Origin: Candidatus Sungiibacteriota bacterium
GTDB taxonomy: Bacteria; Patescibacteriota; Minisyncoccia; Sungbacterales; JACQCQ01
NCBI GenBank assembly: GCA_016201505.1
Contig: JACQCQ010000002.1
Location: 76,750-140,749 of the forward strand
Reading direction: 5' to 3'
DNA length: 64,000 nt
Positions 50,676 through 58,883 of this stretch are shown here, one piece after another. Numbering within the stretch: position 1 is the first letter of the stretch; each line of letters starts with the position of its first letter. The notes under the pieces are model-generated. The model made no database searches and was not told where the DNA came from. It saw only the letters and a program-made list of their open reading frames with translations. Position numbers and translations under genes: made by a program.

Positions 50676-51133
50676 CGTTCATCATGGGGAAGGTCAGTAC
50701 GACTTCCCCTCCACAATTCAGGTACATACAAACATAAGTCGAATCGCAAATGGTTCGGCAGGCTCACCACAAGTGAATCTGTCGAACTTTCTCTCGATGA
50801 TTCTTGAGACTCGTAATTACATTACTTGTCCCGAGCGAAGTCGAGGGATCTCACTCGTTCTCTGATGAATGTCAGAGGACAAGAAAATAAAAAGCGGTTA
50901 TTAAGGGCGCATGGTGGATGCCTTGGCTTTAAACAGCGATGAAGGACGTAGCGTGCTTGCGATAAGCATCGGGGAGGTGGCGAGCAACCTTTGATCCGGT
51001 GATGTCCGAATGGGGAAACCCTAGGGGAGTAATGTTCCCTAACCCGTCGTGTAATAGCGATGTGGAGTCAACCTGGTGAAGTGAAACATCTCAGTAACCA
51101 GAGGAAAAGAAAACAAGTTGCTTCGCAACTTTT

Positions 51134-51203
51134 ATCAGCGAATAGCGAATCCCGTACGAATAAGCGAATTCGTTTATTCGAAAAGATTCGTAATTCGTTG
51201 ATG
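51134..51203 (+). repeat. IVS hairpin element copy A (71 nt)
   Basis: The sequence is atcagcgaatagcgaatcccgtacgaataagcgaattcgtttattcgaaaagattcgtaattcgttgatga. It is identical to the copy at 55191–55261. Confidence 0.75.
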
Positions 51204-51610
51204 ATCGAGCGCAGTGAACATTCCGTCAGTAGCGGCGAGCGAACGCGGAACAGCCTAGAGGAATCAGTTTGCTAGTTTACTAGTTCGCTGGTTCCAGTTG
51301 TAAGTTTAGTTCGTAAAAGAGCAATCTTTTGAAGAGTGTAAAAATTAAGACTTCGTTAGGAGAATGGTCCTGGAACGGCCAACCACAGAAGGTAATAGTC
51401 CTGTACACGAAAACGGTCTTATACTCTTGGAACTTTACTTGAGTACTGCCCAGTATGACGACTGGGTAGGAAGCAGGGAGAACTAGTCTCCCAAGGCTAA
51501 ATATGTTTAAAGACCGATAGTGAACCAGTACCGTGAGGGAAAGGTGAAAAGCAGCCCGGTGAGGGCGGTGAAATAGTACCTGAAACCATGTGCTTACAAG
51601 GAGTCGGAGC

Positions 51611-52110
51611 TCGCTTCGCTGACGAAGCGGTAGATTCAAAATCTTAAAACTGCAAAATCAAATATTTCCTTTTGTGTATCTGAATTGAAAAAATAAGGAG
51701 GTGTCAATGGCATACCCCCAAGATGAAATCGCACGCCTGCGGGAAATGCTGCGGCTTGATCAGATGTCGCCGGAAGAGCTGGTACGGTTTCTTAAACTGT
51801 TTTGGGAGATTACGGAGAGCAAGGTTCTCGAGCGCGGCGCCGAAGGCAAGGATGTCTTTAACGCCGGGTTGGCTGAATGGCTGCTCACGATTGCTGTAGT
51901 TGCCATCGTGCGGTCTTTTATTGATCGCGCTGACAAGAGAGCGATTGTCCGAACCCTCAAAGCCTCGTTACCGGCGAAGATTTGGGAAGTTTGCCGGCCG
52001 CTTTGCGAGCCCTTGCTCTCAATTCCCGGGGAGTGATCCGTCAGCCGACGGACTCCCCGTTCAATTCAGATACATAAAAATAGTTTTGAATTTTGTAGTT
52101 TAGTTTTTAA
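51611..52110 (+). mobile_element. helix-25 intervening sequence carrying a 110-aa ORF, flanked by perfect 12-bp inverted repeat gtatctgaattg / caattcagatac
   Basis: The insertion follows 'cttacaaggagtcggagc', the classic H25 IVS site. The inverted repeats lie at 51682–51693 and 52060–52071. Confidence 0.6.
51707..52036 (+). CDS. hypothetical 110-aa protein encoded inside 23S rRNA IVS (MAYPQDEIARLREML…)
   Basis: It has a strong RBS (AAGGAGG, 5 nt spacer). It is followed by the hairpin gatccgtcagccgacggactcccc. No known homing-endonuclease motif. Confidence 0.45.
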   Translation: MAYPQDEIARLREMLRLDQMSPEELVRFLKLFWEITESKVLERGAEGKDVFNAGLAEWLLTIAVVAIVRSFIDRADKRAIVRTLKASLPAKIWEVCRPLCEPLLSIPGE

Positions 52111-52389
52111 ATTTAGCGACGCGTCAGCGGAGCGAGTAACGGCATGCCTATTGAAGAATGAGCCAACGAGTGTATGGAGATTGCTTGCTTAACCCCGCCC
52201 TTTGCGCAGTAGCGCAAAAGGCGGAACTGACAGTCTACAGTCTACCGACTACAGCAGATGTTGTTGTTCATGCGGTAGTCAGTAGTCCGTGGTCAGTAGT
52301 CCGCCCCTTGTTAGTGAACAAAGGACGGGGGGAGGCGCAGGGAAACCGAGTGTTAACAGCGCGTAAGCACCTCACTTTGTTCGGTGCCT

Positions 52390-52461
52390 ATCAGCGAATA
52401 TCGAATCCAAAACGAATAAACGAATTCGTTTATTCGAAAAAGATTTGTAATTCGTTGATGA
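52390..52461 (+). repeat. IVS hairpin element copy B (~90% identical to A)
   Basis: atcagcgaatatcgaatccaaaacgaataaacgaattcgtttattcgaaaaagatttgtaattcgttgatga. Confidence 0.7.
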
Positions 52462-53030
52462 CCGAGCGAAGCGAGGCTGCATGTAGTCTTCATACGACCC
52501 GAAACCAAGTGAGCTACCCATGGGCAGGGTGAACTTTGAGTAACATCAAAGGGAGGCCCGAACCGGTTGGTCGTACAACGCCTTCGGATGACCTGTGGGT
52601 TGGAGTGAAAAGCTAATCGAACTTGGAAATAGCTGGTTCTCTTCGAAATAGCTTTAGGGCTAGCGTCAAATCACACCGTAATGGAGGTAGAGCACTGGAT
52701 GGACTGTAATGGGGCAACCCAGGCAGTCCAATCAAACTCCGAATGCCGTTACGCGTTATTTTGGCAGTCAGCAGGCGGGGGCTAAGCTCCGTCGTGCAAG
52801 AGGGAAACAGCCCAGACCGCCGATTAAGGTCCCTAAATCAATGCTAAGTGTATAAGGCGGTGGAATTTTTAAAACAGCGAGGAGGTTGGCTTAGAAGCAG
52901 CCATCCTTTAAAGAGTGCGTAACAGCTCACTCGTCAAAAGATTCTGCGCCACAAATGTAGCGGGGCTAAGCATTGTACCGAAGTCGCGGGTTGCGCGCTT
53001 CACTTTTGTTCAGCGCGCTCATCATCGAAT

Positions 53031-53116
53031 AGCGAATCACGAACGAATAAACGAATCACCATAACCGTATTCGTATATTCGCAGCAAATTCGTTATTCGC
53101 TGATAGAGCGCCGAGC
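53031..53116 (+). repeat. helix-45 IVS hairpin (diverged palindromic variant)
   Basis: The sequence is atcatcgaatagcgaatcacgaacgaataaacgaat…attcgttattcgctgatag. It lies at the canonical H45 IVS position, between 'gaagtcgcgggttgcg' and 'gagcgccgagcagc'. Confidence 0.6.
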
Positions 53117-54034
53117 AGCAGCGAGGCGCGTAACGGTAGAAGAGCATTTGCATCAGCAGTGAAGGAGGACCCGCGAGGGCCTCTGGAGCGGTGCGAAGAG
53201 AGAATGTTGGCACTAGTAACCGCAAGTTAGGTGAGAATCCTAACCGCCGAAAGTCCAAGGTTTCCTTGGCAATGCTAATCAGCTAAGGGTTAGTCGGTCC
53301 TAAGGGAATGGTGAAAACCGCACCCGATGGATACACGGTTAATATTCCGTGACTCGAGTTTTGATCGATGGCGGGACGGAGCGTTGTACATTCTATGGAT
53401 TATTGGATTTCCATTTCTGTTATGAGGAAAGCGCGTAGGCAAATCCGCGCGCTGGGTTAGACCCGCTTCCAAGTAATGGGATAATGCGTTTCTTCGGATT
53501 CGCAAATAGAAAGGAGCACGCTTCCCAGAAAAACGTCTAAGATTATCTTGACTCGAACCGTACCGCAAACCGACACAGGTGGACTAGTGGAGAACACTAA
53601 GGCGAACGGGTGAGACCTCGTTAAGGAACTCGGCAAAAAAGCGGCCGTAAGTTCGCAATAAGGCCTGCCTCATTGAGGCTGATAGAAGGAAAGAAAGCAC
53701 TGCACAGTGTTGGTTTTTGAATTTGTGTTTTGTGCAACGTATTCTCGAAAAGCGTTTGCATTTGTTCCAGCGACAAATGCAACTCGCCAAGCTCGCAAAA
53801 ACTTTTTGTTTCGACAAAAAGACCAAGCTTTTCGCTCGCTTGAGCGTTTTCTTAAATACGTTTGCACCGATATGGATTCTTGATCGAACACTGTGCAGTG
53901 CAAAAGAGAAAGGGCAGATTTTTGCTGATGCAAAAATCTGAAACTAGAAAACTAGAGCCGCGAAAGCGGCGTAACTAGAAAACTATAGTTGTAACTCTGA
54001 ATTGCGGAGTTAAATAGTTCGCTGGGGAAAAGGT

Positions 54035-54130
54035 ATGAACTCGCAAGGAGAAGTAACGCCACTGGCGTTGATGGGACTTGCGACCGTTTTTGCCATATAT
54101 CTTCTCTGCCAGCTCATCTGGGCGGGATAG
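54035..54130 (+). CDS. 31-aa hydrophobic mini-peptide MNSQGEVTPLALMGLATVFAIYLLCQLIWAG
   Basis: An RBS-like 'ggggaaaagg' precedes it. It lies inside the rRNA insertion. Confidence 0.3.
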   Translation: MNSQGEVTPLALMGLATVFAIYLLCQLIWAG

Positions 54131-54142
54131 TGGAGGATATGA

Positions 54143-54271
54143 ATGTCCAGGCTGGCGGCATATCCGCTGTTCCTTGTCTGTTGGACTCCGTTCATGATTG
54201 TGATCGGGTTCATCATCGGGATCATGATCGAGCGATCGGGTCGGATTCTTGCGGCCGAGGAGGAGGTATGA
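54143..54271 (+). CDS. 42-aa single-TM mini-peptide MSRLAAYPLFLVCWTPFMIVIGFIIGIMIERSGRILAAEEEV
   Basis: The RBS 'tggagga' precedes it. Its stop overlaps the next start (ATGA). Confidence 0.35.
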   Translation: MSRLAAYPLFLVCWTPFMIVIGFIIGIMIERSGRILAAEEEV

Positions 54272-54390
54272 GAACAGCCATCGGTTTTATGATCACTATT
54301 GGGATCATGGCTGCTGTTGTGATCATCGATCGGTGGTGCAAGCGGCGCCTGCCGATGCGCGGCATCTTCGGGCCGTATCGGCAGGCATAA
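54268..54390 (+). CDS. 40-aa single-TM mini-peptide MRTAIGFMITIGIMAAVVIIDRWCKRRLPMRGIFGPYRQA (paralog of previous)
   Basis: The RBS 'gaggaggagg' precedes it. It shares the 'IGF.I.IGIM' core with the upstream peptide. The hairpin gatccgtcagttgacggagactcccc follows. Confidence 0.35.
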   Translation: MRTAIGFMITIGIMAAVVIIDRWCKRRLPMRGIFGPYRQA

Positions 54391-55190
54391 GGAGACGAGG
54401 GAGTGCGATCCGTCAGTTGACGGAGACTCCCCCAACCCTACTAAAAATGTAGGGCCGCAATTCAGGGTTACAACAGGTCTAAGTTTAGGCGCGATTGCGC
54501 GAGCGAGCGGTAAGTTCTTAAAGAAAGGAGAAGTACGCGGACCGAAGAGGATCTGCCGAATCGAGGGCAGCACATGTGCATACCGGAGTAGTCGACGGTC
54601 ATTCGGCAAGACCTTACGCCCCTCCGCATAGTTCTTTGATCGCTCGTGCAAAAAAATATGGAGGGCGCAGACCTTCGGGTCTCGGTATAGGCAGGTAGCC
54701 TGCCCCTCCGCCATTCGCCAACTGGTGAAGCCAACTGGTGAAGCCAACTGGTGAACTCGAGCAGAGAGTCTCCCGCCAGGGTCTCTTCTCTGTAAAAGAT
54801 GGGCGGTCCCGCCGCCCGTTACTCGAGCACCCCAGCGGCCTCCCTAGCCCGGGGCCGCTGGGGTTCGAAAATCACTATGTCGGGCGCGACGTGAGCTCTC
54901 CTGGTAGGGGATTGCGTCGACTCACCCGGCAGAACGCGGCGGCGGTTCCCCCCGGAGCCGCCGCCGTCGTAAACACTTTTCTCTTATTTTTCTCCTCGAA
55001 ATTCGAAGTCGGATTTCGATCCTTCTATCAGCCTCTTTGAGGCCGCAGCGAAAGATTCTCTGGCGACTGTTTACCAAAAACACAGGTCCCTGCTAAACAC
55101 GTAAGTGGATGTATAGGGGCTGACGCCTGACCAATGCGAGAAGGTTAAAGATTGTGGTTGCTTCGCTCTTGCTTCGTAACATCAGCGAAT

Positions 55191-55261
55191 AGCGAATCCC
55201 GTACGAATAAGCGAATTCGTTTATTCGAAAAGATTCGTAATTCGTTGATGAAAAGCTGTGG
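55191..55261 (+). repeat. IVS hairpin element copy C (identical to copy A)
   Basis: The 71-nt sequence is identical to 51134–51203. Confidence 0.75.
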
Positions 55262-55329
55262 AGCGTGAGCGGAGCAGCTAACGGTCCCAAGCCCTCGTCA
55301 ATGTCAGCGATAACTATAAGTAACGATTG

Positions 55330-56140
55330 TAGTTATAAAATTTGGCTATATGTTCCCAATTTGTCTGCGAGCGTTAGCGAGTGGCTAACAAATCGCAATC
55401 CCGTGGCCTTACAGTCACGAGACAAAACAAATTCGGGAAACCCGAAGTCACGCCGCGCAATACGAAAGTGTTGGTTGCGGGGGAAGGCTTTGGGGACTGG
55501 AAAACCCGCGAATGCAGAAGTACTTCAATACCACGTAGTATTGAAGTAACAATCTTCTGCCGATTCGTGAAGGTAAGATGGATGTATTCCGCTCGCAATA
55601 TGAACGGATGTATCCGCCGAAGCCTTGGCGAAGGCGGACAATCAGCAGGAAAGATTCTAATTGGTAAAAATTAGAAAATCCTCAGAGACTACACGCCAAA
55701 CTCTTCAATGCACTCGAGTCTGTCGAGCTAATTGGATAGATGATATAGTCCGAACTCTATGGTGACATAGAGAGTTGACCCGAGAGAGGGTCAGAGTAAC
55801 ACTAAATGAATCGTTCTAAGGTGAATAACACTGCCTTAGTAAAATCTAGCTATATCGGTGAACACCTTACACTTTAATACTTTAAAGTATTAAAGTGTAA
55901 GACAATACCGAGGCAACCCCGCCAAAATTTTGCACGAGCAAAACTTAGGCGGGTGAGTCCGTAGAGACTACACGCTAGACTCCAATCCGCAGTTGGCGGA
56001 GGAGAAGATATAGTCCGGCCTCTATGGCGACATAGAGAGATGCAGAGAAATCGTGCATCCGGATTCATGATTCATAATTCTTGCTTGCCCTTCCGTAGCT
56101 CTAGAGAGCAAAGGAGGGATTCATGATTCTAGTAACAATT
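55330..56140 (+). mobile_element. ~0.8-kb ORF-less insertion (group I intron-like) at the 23S 1917–1931 (I-CeuI site) region
   Basis: It interrupts 'taactataa | …gcgtaattccttgtcgggtaag'. It contains an internal ~100-nt duplication (55680–55800 versus 55958–56060). It also contains the 36-bp perfect palindrome cttacactttaatactttaaagtattaaagtgtaag (55866–55901). Confidence 0.45.
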
Positions 56141-56739
56141 CGAGCGTAATTCCTTGTCGGGTAAGTTCCGACGTGCACGAAAGGCGTAACGACTGGAGAA
56201 CTGTCTCAACGAGGTGCCCGGTGAAAATACAATATCGGTGAAGATGCCGATTACCCACAGATAGACGAAAAGACCCCGGGAGCTTTACTGCAGCTTGATA
56301 TTGGCAATGAATACTTTATGCGTAGCATAGATGGGAGACTTTGAAGTCGTGGTTTCGGCCATGATGGAGTCGCCAGTGAAATACCATTCTTAAAGAATTC
56401 TTTGTCTAACTTGTAGAGACGAAACTCTATGCAGACAGTGTCTGGCGGGCAGTTTAAGTGGGGCACTTGCCTCCCAAAAAGTAATGGAGGCGTTTATTAA
56501 GGTTGGCTAGCGCCGGATGGAAATCGGCGTCGTCCCGTAAAGGGAAATGCCAGCTTGACTGCAAGGCGGGTATGCCGCGCAGGTGCGAAAGCAGAACTTA
56601 GTGATCCGATGGCTATGGTTGTTTAGTTTACTAGTTTCGGTCTTTATTGACCTACTGGTTTTCTAGTTTTCGAACTAGTTAACTAGAAAACTGGTGAACT
56701 GATCAATTTCTTGCTAGAACAAGGCCAAAGCTCATCAGC

Positions 56740-56770
<31 letters not shown>

Positions 56771-56903
56771 GCTTCCAAGAGTTCATATCGACGAAGCGGT
56801 TCGGCACCTCGATGTCGGCTCGGCTTATCCTGGAGGTGGAGAAGCTTCCAAGGGTTTGGCTGTTCGCCAATTAAAAAGTCACGCGAGCTGGGTTCAAACC
56901 GTC

Positions 56904-57741
56904 AACAAAAGAACCCGAAAATGACATCGAAACATTCAACAAGTTTTTGATAGGAGCTTGTTTGAAACACACGGCGGCCCCTGGTAGCAATGCCGGGGAG
57001 CGAAACCCGTAGAATCCCAAGGGGGTCCGGGTAAGAAAACCGACTCATATCGATGAAATCCACGTATGCATTCAACCTGTCATATGTTAGGATAATATCG
57101 AGGGAAGTCGTGTATGTTGCAATCGTTAACGCAAAATCAAAGGGCATATATTGCAGGTTTTCTTGATGGAGATGGAAGCATTTATGTGCGAGCAAAACCA
57201 AACCCTACTTATCGGTTTGGCTTTCAAATTGCTCCATATATAGTATTTTTCCAGTCACAATCTAGTCAGGAAAGATTTGGGGAGATATGCAAGTTGATTA
57301 GCGTGGGACATTTACGCATTCGAAGTGACGGTATTCTTGAGTACATCATAAATCGTATTGATGAAATCAAGATGTTGCTGGAATGTGTTCGTCCCTTCGC
57401 AATTCTCAAAAGGCGACAGATAGATTTGATGTTGAAAATAATTGAATCAAAGTCGCAAGTAGAGAACGAAGACGATTTTGAGAAACTTCTTCAACTAGTA
57501 AATTCTTATCGAGAATTAAACTATTCTAAGAAGAGAAAGCAACGTTCATTGACCCCGTAGAGACTTGTCGTGAAAGCGGCAGAGTAATTCAGAAATGATT
57601 TGCTAACACGTCGGTCACCCATTAAATGTAGATACTGTTTAATGGGTTGGTGGTATAGTCCAATCCCTCTAGTAATAGAGGAAGGTTAAGCATTTAGTAA
57701 CCTTAATTCTTGACTCTAAATTCTTAATTCTAGTAAACAGC
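56904..57741 (+). mobile_element. group I-type intron at 23S position 2593 (I-CreI homing site) encoding a LAGLIDADG endonuclease
   Basis: The exon junction is 'gggttcaaaccgtc | gtgagacaggttgg', which corresponds to the E. coli sequence AACGTC^GTGAGACAG. Confidence 0.7.
57114..57560 (+). CDS. single-motif LAGLIDADG homing endonuclease, I-CreI-like
   Basis: The motif is 'YIAGFLDGDGSIYVRAKPNPTYRFGFQ'. Overall similarity extends to I-CreI ('LAGFVDGDGSIIAQIKPNQSYKFKHQ…LVLKIIE' versus 'IDLMLKIIE'). Confidence 0.8.
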   Translation: MLQSLTQNQRAYIAGFLDGDGSIYVRAKPNPTYRFGFQIAPYIVFFQSQSSQERFGEICKLISVGHLRIRSDGILEYIINRIDEIKMLLECVRPFAILKRRQIDLMLKIIESKSQVENEDDFEKLLQLVNSYRELNYSKKRKQRSLTP

Positions 57742-57883
57742 GTGAGACAGGTTGGTCTCCTATCTTCTGTGGGCGTAGAAATTTGAGAGGGCTTCTGGAC
57801 AGTACGAGAGGACCTTCAGGAACAAACCTCTGGTGTACCAGCTGTTCCGCCAGGAGCATCGCTGGGTAGCTATGTTTGGTTGT

Positions 57884-57914
<31 letters not shown>

Positions 57915-58294
57915 ACGCCTCAAGATAAGATTTCATAGATCCCTGAGAGATTATCAGGTTGATAGGGTGCAGGTGTACATGGAGTAATCCATTCAGCCGA
58001 GCACTACTAATAGATCATCACCACTTTTTATTTTCCTTTGCCCGCCGAAGCGTTATGCGACGGCAGGACGGTGAGAATAATACAATTCTTGCCCGCCTAA
58101 GTTTTTCGTTAGAAAAATTTTGGCGGGGTTTATTACCCTTTTGCAGTTATTAGCTTTGAATGTGCGTTTCTCCAAAATAAAACTTGCCGACCTCGAACGC
58201 GCCGGACTCGGCCGCGAGGTCTGAGAGGGAAAGGAGAGCCTCTAAGCTCTTATCCTACCCTCTCTCTAACACCGAGTTTCGTATTTTAAAATTC

Positions 58295-58500: not shown

Positions 58501-58621
58501 TTTGCTATTTGCTGGTGTCTTTCATCTTTTGGGTACCACCCCTTCCCATTCCGAACAGGGCCGTTAAACCAAAAGTAGCCGATGATACTCGGAGGTTTAG
58601 CCTCCCGGGAAAGTAGGTGAT
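58501..58621 (+). rRNA. rrf: 5S ribosomal RNA
   Basis: '…gggtaccaccccttcccattccgaacagggccgttaaacc…gccgatgatactcggagg…gggaaagtaggtgatgccagcat' aligns with the 5S consensus. This includes helix I pairing of gctggtg with caccagc. Confidence 0.6.
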
Positions 58622-58883
58622 GCCAGCATATAAAAGATTTGGTTCGGGGACCCCGAGCAATCGCTCCCGCGATATTTGGAGGCAGGGGGCAGGGTCTCAC
58701 TTCGGAAAGCATAGCAGGGCGAAGTCCCGCATCGAGCTTTGCTCTGGTGCGGGATAGCTGCCGCCAGAACAATGCTTTTTATTTTTCCCACGAAGTGGGA
58801 AAAATAACCCTGAGCGCAGTTGAAGGGTCACACTATTCTCATTATTCCTAATTCCTGATTCATAATTCATAATGAAGGGCATG

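Follow-up and report, generated by a model that had tools for sequence, protein, structure and literature searches.

The 23S ribosomal RNA (rRNA) genes of the Candidate Phyla Radiation (CPR/Patescibacteria) are rich in insertions: of 348 such genes surveyed, 82% contained them, and 45% of the insertions matched group I introns (Tsurumaki et al. 2024, PMC11270868). According to the same survey, genes of the LAGLIDADG_1 family are found predominantly at positions 1917, 1931, 1952, 2593, 2604, and 2657, and one CPR enzyme, I-ShaI, cuts its target in vitro and forms dimers. Among cyanobacteria, Synechococcus sp. C9 carries the trio L1917, L1931, and L2593, and the introns at L2593 combine a short P2 and P5 with P7.1/P7.2 (Haugen et al. 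2007, PMC1995217). Here, we describe an insertion in the 23S rRNA gene of a Candidatus Sungbacteria (CPR/Patescibacteria) metagenome-assembled genome, on a 64,000-nt stretch of contig JACQCQ010000002.1 (“the window,” the whole of the DNA analysed). With high confidence, we assign this insertion to the mobile group I introns of the I-CreI (L2593) type. Its open reading frame (ORF) encodes a protein 100% identical to NCBI HY220_00725.

Insertion site, boundaries, and encoded protein

The large-subunit rRNA begins at 50889 of the window and the 5S rRNA occupies 58511-58628 (Rfam); neither 16S rRNA nor tRNA was found in the same scan of the 64 kb. The 23S gene spans ∼7.1 kb, and it therefore holds roughly 4 kb of insertions. 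Alignment to E. coli rrlH (blastn) equates E. coli 2414-2594 with 56723-56903 of the window and 2594-2803 with 57741-57949, which locates the 838-nt insertion at U2593/C2594; this numbering was verified on the E. coli sequence itself (T2593, C2594). The insertion is exactly at L2593, the site of the I-CreI intron, in the peptidyl-transferase ring of 23S rRNA.

Choosing the exact limits requires some care, because a C is duplicated at the junction and common to both ends, making 56904-57741 and 56903-57740 equivalent on sequence alone. In group I introns the 5' exon ends in U and the intron ends in G; the second pair of limits is favoured since it leaves a U before the 5' splice site and closes the intron with a G. 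Relatives of the ORF bear this out. A scan using one genome per species returned >575 of them, of which 80 loci were kept, and the 60 with both exon motifs were used for comparison. All 60 have the homologous ORF between GGGTTCARACCGT and CGTGAGACAG, and 59 of the introns close with a terminal G. The 3' exon always starts CGTGAGACAG (C2594), including where the intron does not begin with C, and this removes the ambiguity. The sequence-only reading, which had put the insertion at 56904-57741 with the junction split as aaccgtc/gtgagacag, was right about the insertion and about the I-CreI site; the limits move one base to the left, and the split is aaccgt/cgtgagacag, after U2593. At 838 nt, this intron is the longest of the 60 compared (the others span 665-824 nt), owing to its expanded P1 loop, P2.1 hairpin, and long 3' tail.

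The protein has one LAGLIDADG motif, YIAGFLDGDGSI (YIAGFLDGDGS), and matches Pfam LAGLIDADG_1 (1.2e-8), so that the earlier description of a 148-amino-acid, single-motif ORF is borne out by the ORF list and by Pfam alike. Against the PDB, the best natural phmmer matches are I-CreI (E 8.7e-20), I-MsoI (E 2.6e-15), and I-CvuI (3.8e-11), three enzymes that all cut the L2593 site. The I-CreI and I-MsoI alignments are collinear and near full length, and identity to I-CreI is 38% over 139 amino acids (BLASTP). The similarity that had been noticed at the C-terminus (LMLKIIE vs. LVLKIIE) is part of this full-length alignment. An AlphaFold2 model built with 22 family members (predicted local distance difference test score, 89.7) has the order alpha-beta-beta-alpha-beta-beta-alpha. 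The comparison with the I-CreI structure that had been proposed agrees: Foldseek against the PDB gives template modelling (TM) scores of 0.84-0.85 for I-MsoI and I-CreI, with root-mean-square deviations of 2.0-2.2 Å over 140 columns, and among the matches listed, to rank 46, all are I-CreI, I-MsoI, I-CvuI, or engineered derivatives.

Residues D20, K28, Y33, Q38, Q47, R68, R70, and K99 are invariant in the 22 family members, and N30 is nearly so. D20 aligns with the metal-binding D20 of I-CreI and K99 with its active-site K98, while K28, N30, Y33, Q38, R68, and R70 correspond to I-CreI DNA contacts. The ORF is therefore not a closer match to maturases devoid of nuclease residues, an outcome that the sequence-only reading had allowed for: its best matches are I-CreI, I-MsoI, and I-CvuI, and the Asp20 and active-site Lys are kept. 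The family is large, with >2,300 homologues, almost all of about 148 amino acids. We recommend that HY220_00725, now a “hypothetical protein,” be named an I-CreI-family homing endonuclease, and that the 838-nt insertion be annotated as an intron.

Gene and ribozyme share sequence at both ends of the ORF. Upstream, a Shine-Dalgarno-like GAGGG, 9 nt from the ATG, overlaps the P4' and P6 5' strands; downstream, the codons that close the ORF (L-T-P-stop) supply P6', J6/7, and the opening pair of P7. In the family alignment L146 and T147 are almost invariant, and the strong conservation of the C-terminal LTP is probably due to the overlap of its codons with core RNA helices. With the ribosome-binding site overlapping the P6 5' strand, and the 3' end of the ORF overlapping P6'/P7, translation and ribozyme folding should be mutually exclusive, a known theme for intron-encoded endonucleases.

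Two observations on the relatives are worth recording. At one locus (L025) the homologous ORF is broken, with a stop after 37 amino acids and the remainder readable in frame, and the ribozyme core survives, an example of an ORF decaying within an intact intron. At eight others (L005, L019, L028, L041, L046, L048, L065, and L069) some record titles read Gammaproteobacteria, Bdellovibrionales, or Draconibacterium. The exon is the CPR-type GGGTTCARACCGT, and mis-binning or mislabelling of these contigs is more likely than real transfer.

The ribozyme core

The secondary structure in Table 1 is a manual model, built by comparing the noncoding 5' and 3' parts of homologous introns, and covariation was assessed in a MAFFT alignment of the ORF-deleted cores of 52 introns. 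Standard pairs fill 93.0% of the modelled cells, compared with 29-42% when the 3' partner is slid one to three columns either way. Five of the six P3 pairs show compensatory double changes (C-G 15/U-A 32; C-G 39/U-A 11; G-C 46/A-U 6), P4 has G-C in 45 introns and A-U in 6, and the inner pair of P6 is C-G in 30 and U-A in 22. In P9, several standard pair types are seen at five of six pairs, and three to five types at four of six; compensatory changes also occur in P7.1 and P8. P7 is invariant, as expected of a guanosine-binding helix. Local folds back P2, P5, P7.1/P7.2, P8, and P9.

Within P7, G57560 pairs with C57661, A57561 is bulged, and G57562 pairs with C57660. The reference arrangement in Tetrahymena is C262-G312, a bulged A263, and G264-C311, and by analogy G57562-C57660 is the probable guanosine-binding pair. 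The presence of P7.1/P7.2, which are missing from about 22 of the 52 homologues in the alignment, is a group IA-like trait. The sequence-only reading had made the intron depend on a detectable catalytic core, and such a core is present: it comprises the P3/P7 pseudoknot, the G-C pair with its bulged A, the guide, and the terminal G, with covariation to support it.

Pairing of the guide with the ligated exon CCGU-CGUG is uninterrupted, and its one G.U pair falls at the splice site. Its consensus among homologues is ACACGGCGGC, and CAUG variants still pair. GGCGG, the anchor by which those cores were selected, is present in 52/52 aligned introns. One candidate for J3/4-P4-P5, GCGAAACCCG...CGGGU, was rejected on comparison with homologues; it belongs to P2.1, an insertion peculiar to this intron, and P3 and P4 proper lie further downstream.

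A further complementarity deserves mention. The exon GGGUUC(AAAC) upstream of the splice site can pair with a segment of the P1 loop, over 6 bp in this intron, where 7 nt separate the exon strand of the helix from the splice site downstream. In 20 of the 60 related introns the complementary stretch is 10 nt long; long pairing was noted at loci L005, L015, L025, L032, L033, L073, and others, and by eye some relatives carry it through the splice site, for 13 nt. It also tracks exon variants, exon GGGUUUAGAC occurring with AUCUAAACCC and exon GGGUUAAAAC with AUUUUAACCC. We tentatively raise, as an idea with perhaps a modest chance of being correct, that the intron uses a second, longer exon-binding helix besides the minimal 4-bp P1. 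In this intron, helix and P1 could form together, as a pseudoknot that clamps the exon; among relatives with the long helix, it could instead compete with P1 and act as a switch that holds back splicing until the rRNA or the ORF has been attended to. The long helix was also considered as the real P1 and rejected, given that introns without it (L002, L006, L030, L042, and L055) keep GGCGG and that only GCGG yields the U.G pair and a contiguous P10.

Table 1. Features of the L2593 intron, its exons, and other elements of the 23S rRNA gene (window coordinates)
Feature	Position	Strand	Basis or remark
5' exon end GGGUUCAAACCGU	56890..56902	+	U56902 = E. coli U2593; blastn; motif in 60 related loci
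CCGU, exon strand of P1	56899-56902	+	
Group I intron at L2593, 838 nt, group IA-like (P7.1/P7.2)	56903..57740	+	Last base G57740 = terminal (omega) G
GAACCC, complementary to exon GGGUUC (56890-56895); possible extra exon-intron helix upstream of P1	56911..56916	+	
Hairpin in expanded P1 loop	56935..56966	+	Fold; most homologues lack it
Internal guide CACGGCGG	56970..56977	+	CACG pairs with 3' exon CGUG (P10); GCGG pairs with 5' exon CCGU (P1)
P2 hairpin, GCAA tetraloop	56979..56998	+	Fold; homologues have hairpins of different sequence at the same place
Extra hairpin P2.1	57005..57032	+	Fold; gap in the other 51 aligned sequences, specific to this intron
P3 5' strand ACCGAC, pairs with 57610-57615	57039..57044	+	Covariation
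P4-P5 domain	57050..57101	+	Covariation (P4), fold, alignment
P4, UCGAUG with UAUCGA	57050-57055 with 57096-57101	+	
P5, AUCC with GGAU, extended by P5a	57058-57061 with 57090-57093	+	Loop AACCUGUC conserved
P6 5' strand GGG-AA-GUC	57102..57109	+	Covariation
Homing endonuclease gene, 148 amino acids, single LAGLIDADG domain, I-CreI family, in P6 loop	57114..57560	+	
P6 3' strand GAC-CCC	57551..57556	+	Covariation
P7 5' strand G-(A bulge)-GACU	57560..57565	+	GACU/AGUC invariant in 52/52 introns
P7.1 (57565-57582, GAAA loop) and P7.2 (57583-57604), between P7 and P3'	57565..57604	+	Fold z -2.7
P3 3' strand GUCGGU	57610..57615	+	Covariation
P8 hairpin, ACCCAUUAAA with UUUAAUGGGU	57617..57647	+	Fold z -3.6, covariation
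J8/7 and P7 3' strand UAUAGUCC; AGUC = 57657-57660	57654..57661	+	Rfam alignment of high posterior; invariant
P9 hairpin CCUCUA-GUAA-UAGAGG	57666..57681	+	Covariation
3' tail, 59 nt, P9.1-like further pairing; contains ATTCTTAATTCTAGTAA; ends G57740	57682..57740	+	Fold
3' exon start CGUGAGACAG, E. coli C2594 onward	57741..57750	+	CGUG = P10 exon strand
L1917 group I intron, ORF-less	55318-55808		Rfam Intron_gpI 38.8 bits
14-nt exon between L1917 and L1931 introns	55809-55822		= E. coli 1918-1931
L1931 group I intron, ORF-less	55823-56142		Rfam Intron_gpI 49.0 bits, just below threshold 50
CTAG-containing repeats	53942-53988, 56673-56696, 51266-51291, 54008-54025, 56119-56135, 57720-57736		
71-nt hairpin copies	51134-51204, 55181-55251, 52390-52460, 53020-53056		

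Predicted mobility and rival explanations

In the mechanism that we propose, the guide CACGGCGG would align the exon ends through P1 (CCGU/GCGG, with the U.G pair at the splice site) and P10 (CGUG/CACG), and the core P3-P9, together with the group IA elements P7.1/P7.2, would fold around them. Splicing would take the usual two-step group I route: an external guanosine bound in P7 would attack after U2593; terminal G57740 would then replace it, and the exons would be ligated in vivo into a continuous 23S rRNA, restoring the ring sequence of the peptidyl-transferase centre with a junction reading ...AACCGU-CGUGAGAC... The protein, for its part, would act as a homodimer on a pseudo-palindromic intron-less site of ∼22 bp, CAAACCGT/CGTGAGACAGGTTG, making a staggered cut, and repair from an intron-containing copy would copy the intron into the cut allele (homing).

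The predicted intron-less target is GGGTTCAAACCGTCGTGAGACAGGTTGG, and the intron-less site in this genome reads CAAACCGTCGTGAGACAGGTTG. The exact uninterrupted 28-nt junction occurs in at least 120 metagenome stretches, and so intron-less targets do exist; we expect the enzyme to recognise the intron-less L2593 site. Compared with the I-CreI site, the predicted target carries two substitutions among 22 positions, A to C at -7 and T to G at +8, and contact residues 26, 32, 40, and 44 are R, T, A, and V, vs. Q, S, S, and Q in I-CreI. These differences are consistent with a slightly shifted specificity. A natural I-CreI relative with a predicted target altered at -7 and +8, together with its >2,300 homologues, could inform the engineering of meganuclease specificity; the practical value is small, and current understanding is unchanged.

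A number of points weigh against this interpretation. At the gathering threshold Rfam calls no intron in the window, and relaxed thresholds give three sub-threshold Intron_gpI matches. The L2593 intron scores 29.2 bits (RF00028; E 2.3e-5, for a short stretch) where the gathering score is 50. The alignment has high posterior over P8, J8/7, P7', and P9, so that the Intron_gpI search put forward by the sequence-only reading did match the 3' core; its score is under threshold and its 5' half misplaced. The Rfam placement of P1-P6 falls inside the ORF and was rejected in favour of the covariation-tested manual model, and the 5' half of the core accordingly depends on that model and on covariation. 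The low score arises because the 447-nt ORF in the P6 loop makes the model mis-align the 5' half; it is a limit of the model, not a sign of a missing core, and it follows that cmsearch alone would not settle the group I question. P1 is only 4 bp long, or 5 counting the first intron base. In the protein, no conserved counterpart of I-CreI Arg51 was found in the alignment of 22 family members, and that of Gln47 is ambiguous, being Q49 (BLAST) or the invariant Q47 (ungapped register) depending on where a two-residue gap is placed. Finally, the source is a metagenome-assembled genome, and splicing, as well as the integrity of an rRNA with ∼4 kb of insertions, is predicted from DNA.

Some of these points could be taken to mean that the intron is real and its ORF mainly or only a maturase, or an inactive relic, in an element that is fixed, vertically inherited, and not mobile. 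Some LAGLIDADG proteins are known maturases (I-AniI, yeast bI3), a short P1 with unusual extra domains might need a protein cofactor, Arg51 is not conserved, and the two neighbouring introns are already ORF-less. We nonetheless consider this unlikely: the ORF is intact, with D20 and K99 invariant and the I-CreI DNA contacts K28, N30, Y33, Q38, R68, and R70 conserved, and the family is widespread across CPR lineages at one site of which intron-less alleles exist. Published work points the same way, since its phylogeny indicates horizontal spread and a related CPR enzyme is an active nuclease (PMC11270868).

Far less probable still is an intervening sequence, cut out by RNase III with no ligation to leave a fragmented 23S rRNA in which the group I features are vestigial. 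The site is in the peptidyl-transferase ring rather than at the tip of a helix; conservation extends to the guide, P3/P7, the G-binding pair, and the terminal G; and nothing but selection on the fold explains the compensatory changes. These facts outweigh, in our view, that intervening sequences are known in bacterial 23S genes, that several other insertions in the same gene, a repeated 71-nt hairpin among them, lack a ribozyme signature, and that this class is expected in CPR from the literature too (PMC11270868). As for a chimera of an rRNA gene and an intron from another organism, it is true that rRNA regions are prone to mis-assembly and that the genome was assembled from a metagenome. However, at least 60 independent assemblies show this ORF-in-intron arrangement flanked by these exon motifs, the guide matches its own exon ends, and GAACCC matches its own exon variant; an assembly artefact is the least credible explanation of all, with next to no chance of being correct. 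A mobile group I intron of the I-CreI type is the reading that we retain.

Other insertions in the gene and relation to known systems

The L2593 intron has company. Breaks in the alignment to rrlH fall at 51116-51220, 51616-52329, 52364-52496, around 53000, and at 53664-55063, 55148-56143, 56612-56723, and 56903-57741, and the gene contains three group I introns and at least five other insertions, ∼4 kb in total. What the sequence-only reading took for one ORF-less insertion in the I-CeuI-site region (55330-56140) is really two ORF-less group I introns, L1917 and L1931, that flank the I-CeuI site; that site (L1923) itself lies uninterrupted in the 14-nt exon between them. Both introns have a canonical U.G P1 (exon AUAACUAU with GUAGUUAU; exon CUAAGGU with GCCUUAG), and the two share 88% identity over P7-P9. 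The largest ORFs overlapping these introns, of 94 and 97 amino acids and both in L1917, matched no Pfam family, and the ORF list has no ORF of ≥70 amino acids in the L1931 intron.

The terminal motif that had been reported as common to two insertions is there, with ATTCATGATTCTAGTAA at 56119-56135 and ATTCTTAATTCTAGTAA at 57720-57736 matching at 15/17 positions, each copy 4-7 nt before the terminal G of an intron. In the window, its exact 10-mer occurs no more often than chance predicts (3 matches vs. 3.3 expected), and part of the copy in the L2593 intron can pair with 57684-57699 in the fold; what stands out is only the 15/17 match and its location close to the 3' ends of two introns. Short repeats containing CTAG (AACTAGAAAACTAG, AGTTTACTAG, and ATTCTAGTAA) recur in several unrelated insertions of the gene, and such repeats are also seen in the 3' tails of some related introns (L027, L038, and L004).

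Among the remaining insertions is a near-perfect hairpin of 71 nt (ATCAGCGAATAGCGAATCC...GATTCGTAATTCGTTGATGA), present at three or four places in the gene. Two copies are 100% identical, the hairpin with its flanks folds with z -6.5 to -8.3, and its 24-nt core is found nowhere else in the window. The pattern suggests one hairpin element, such as an intervening sequence or a miniature mobile element, that has spread to several rRNA helices. An insertion of ∼1.35 kb (53664-55040), between E. coli 1704 and 1770, has no significant Rfam match (the best is BjrC80, 33 bits vs. a gathering score of 80), and its ORFs, including one of 245 amino acids on the minus strand, have no Pfam match; a short tandem repeat, GGTGAAGCCAACT, occurs within this insertion around 54724-54755. 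Another, of ∼640 nt (51616-52329), lies near E. coli 546-617, in the helix 25 region, where bacterial intervening sequences are known to occur. Pfam scans of the ORFs in the other insertions of the gene gave no match.

Set beside the described systems, the L2593 intron is on familiar ground. The Cr.LSU intron with I-CreI (Chlamydomonas reinhardtii chloroplast 23S), I-MsoI, and I-CvuI belong to the same site after E. coli U2593, and Cr.LSU likewise has its ORF in the P6 loop and a ribozyme with P7.1/P7.2. The three enzymes are single-domain LAGLIDADG proteins of ∼150 amino acids with the same fold (TM 0.85). With I-CreI the present protein shares D20, K28, N30, Y33, Q38, R68, R70, and the active-site Lys, and the central target GTCGTGAGACAG is identical. 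Identity to I-CreI is nevertheless only 38%, the host is a bacterium where that of I-CreI is a chloroplast, and the expanded P1 loop, the extra P2.1 hairpin, and the long 3' tail set the present intron apart from Cr.LSU.

Class 23IS12 of the CPR survey (position 2593) agrees in clade, gene, site, protein family, and single-domain architecture, and that survey likewise found several introns per gene, including at 1917 and 1931 (PMC11270868). I-ShaI, in contrast, is a relative of I-CeuI from a different insertion site (23IS7), and no L2593-site CPR enzyme was assayed in the survey (PMC11270868). The cyanobacterial L2593 introns (Synechococcus sp. C9, S. lividus C1, and Thermosynechococcus elongatus) are also in bacterial 23S genes and carry a single-motif LAGLIDADG gene (PMC1995217). 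They resemble the present intron in their short P2 and P5, in P7.1/P7.2, and in an ORF that runs into the core, and C9 has the same three sites occupied; their enzymes are longer, at 159-189 amino acids vs. 148 here, and the phylum differs (PMC1995217). The intron is one more member of a described class, for which the CPR 2593 introns were catalogued in 2024 and the cyanobacterial trio in 2007, and its gene is one more example of the heavy colonisation of CPR 23S genes.

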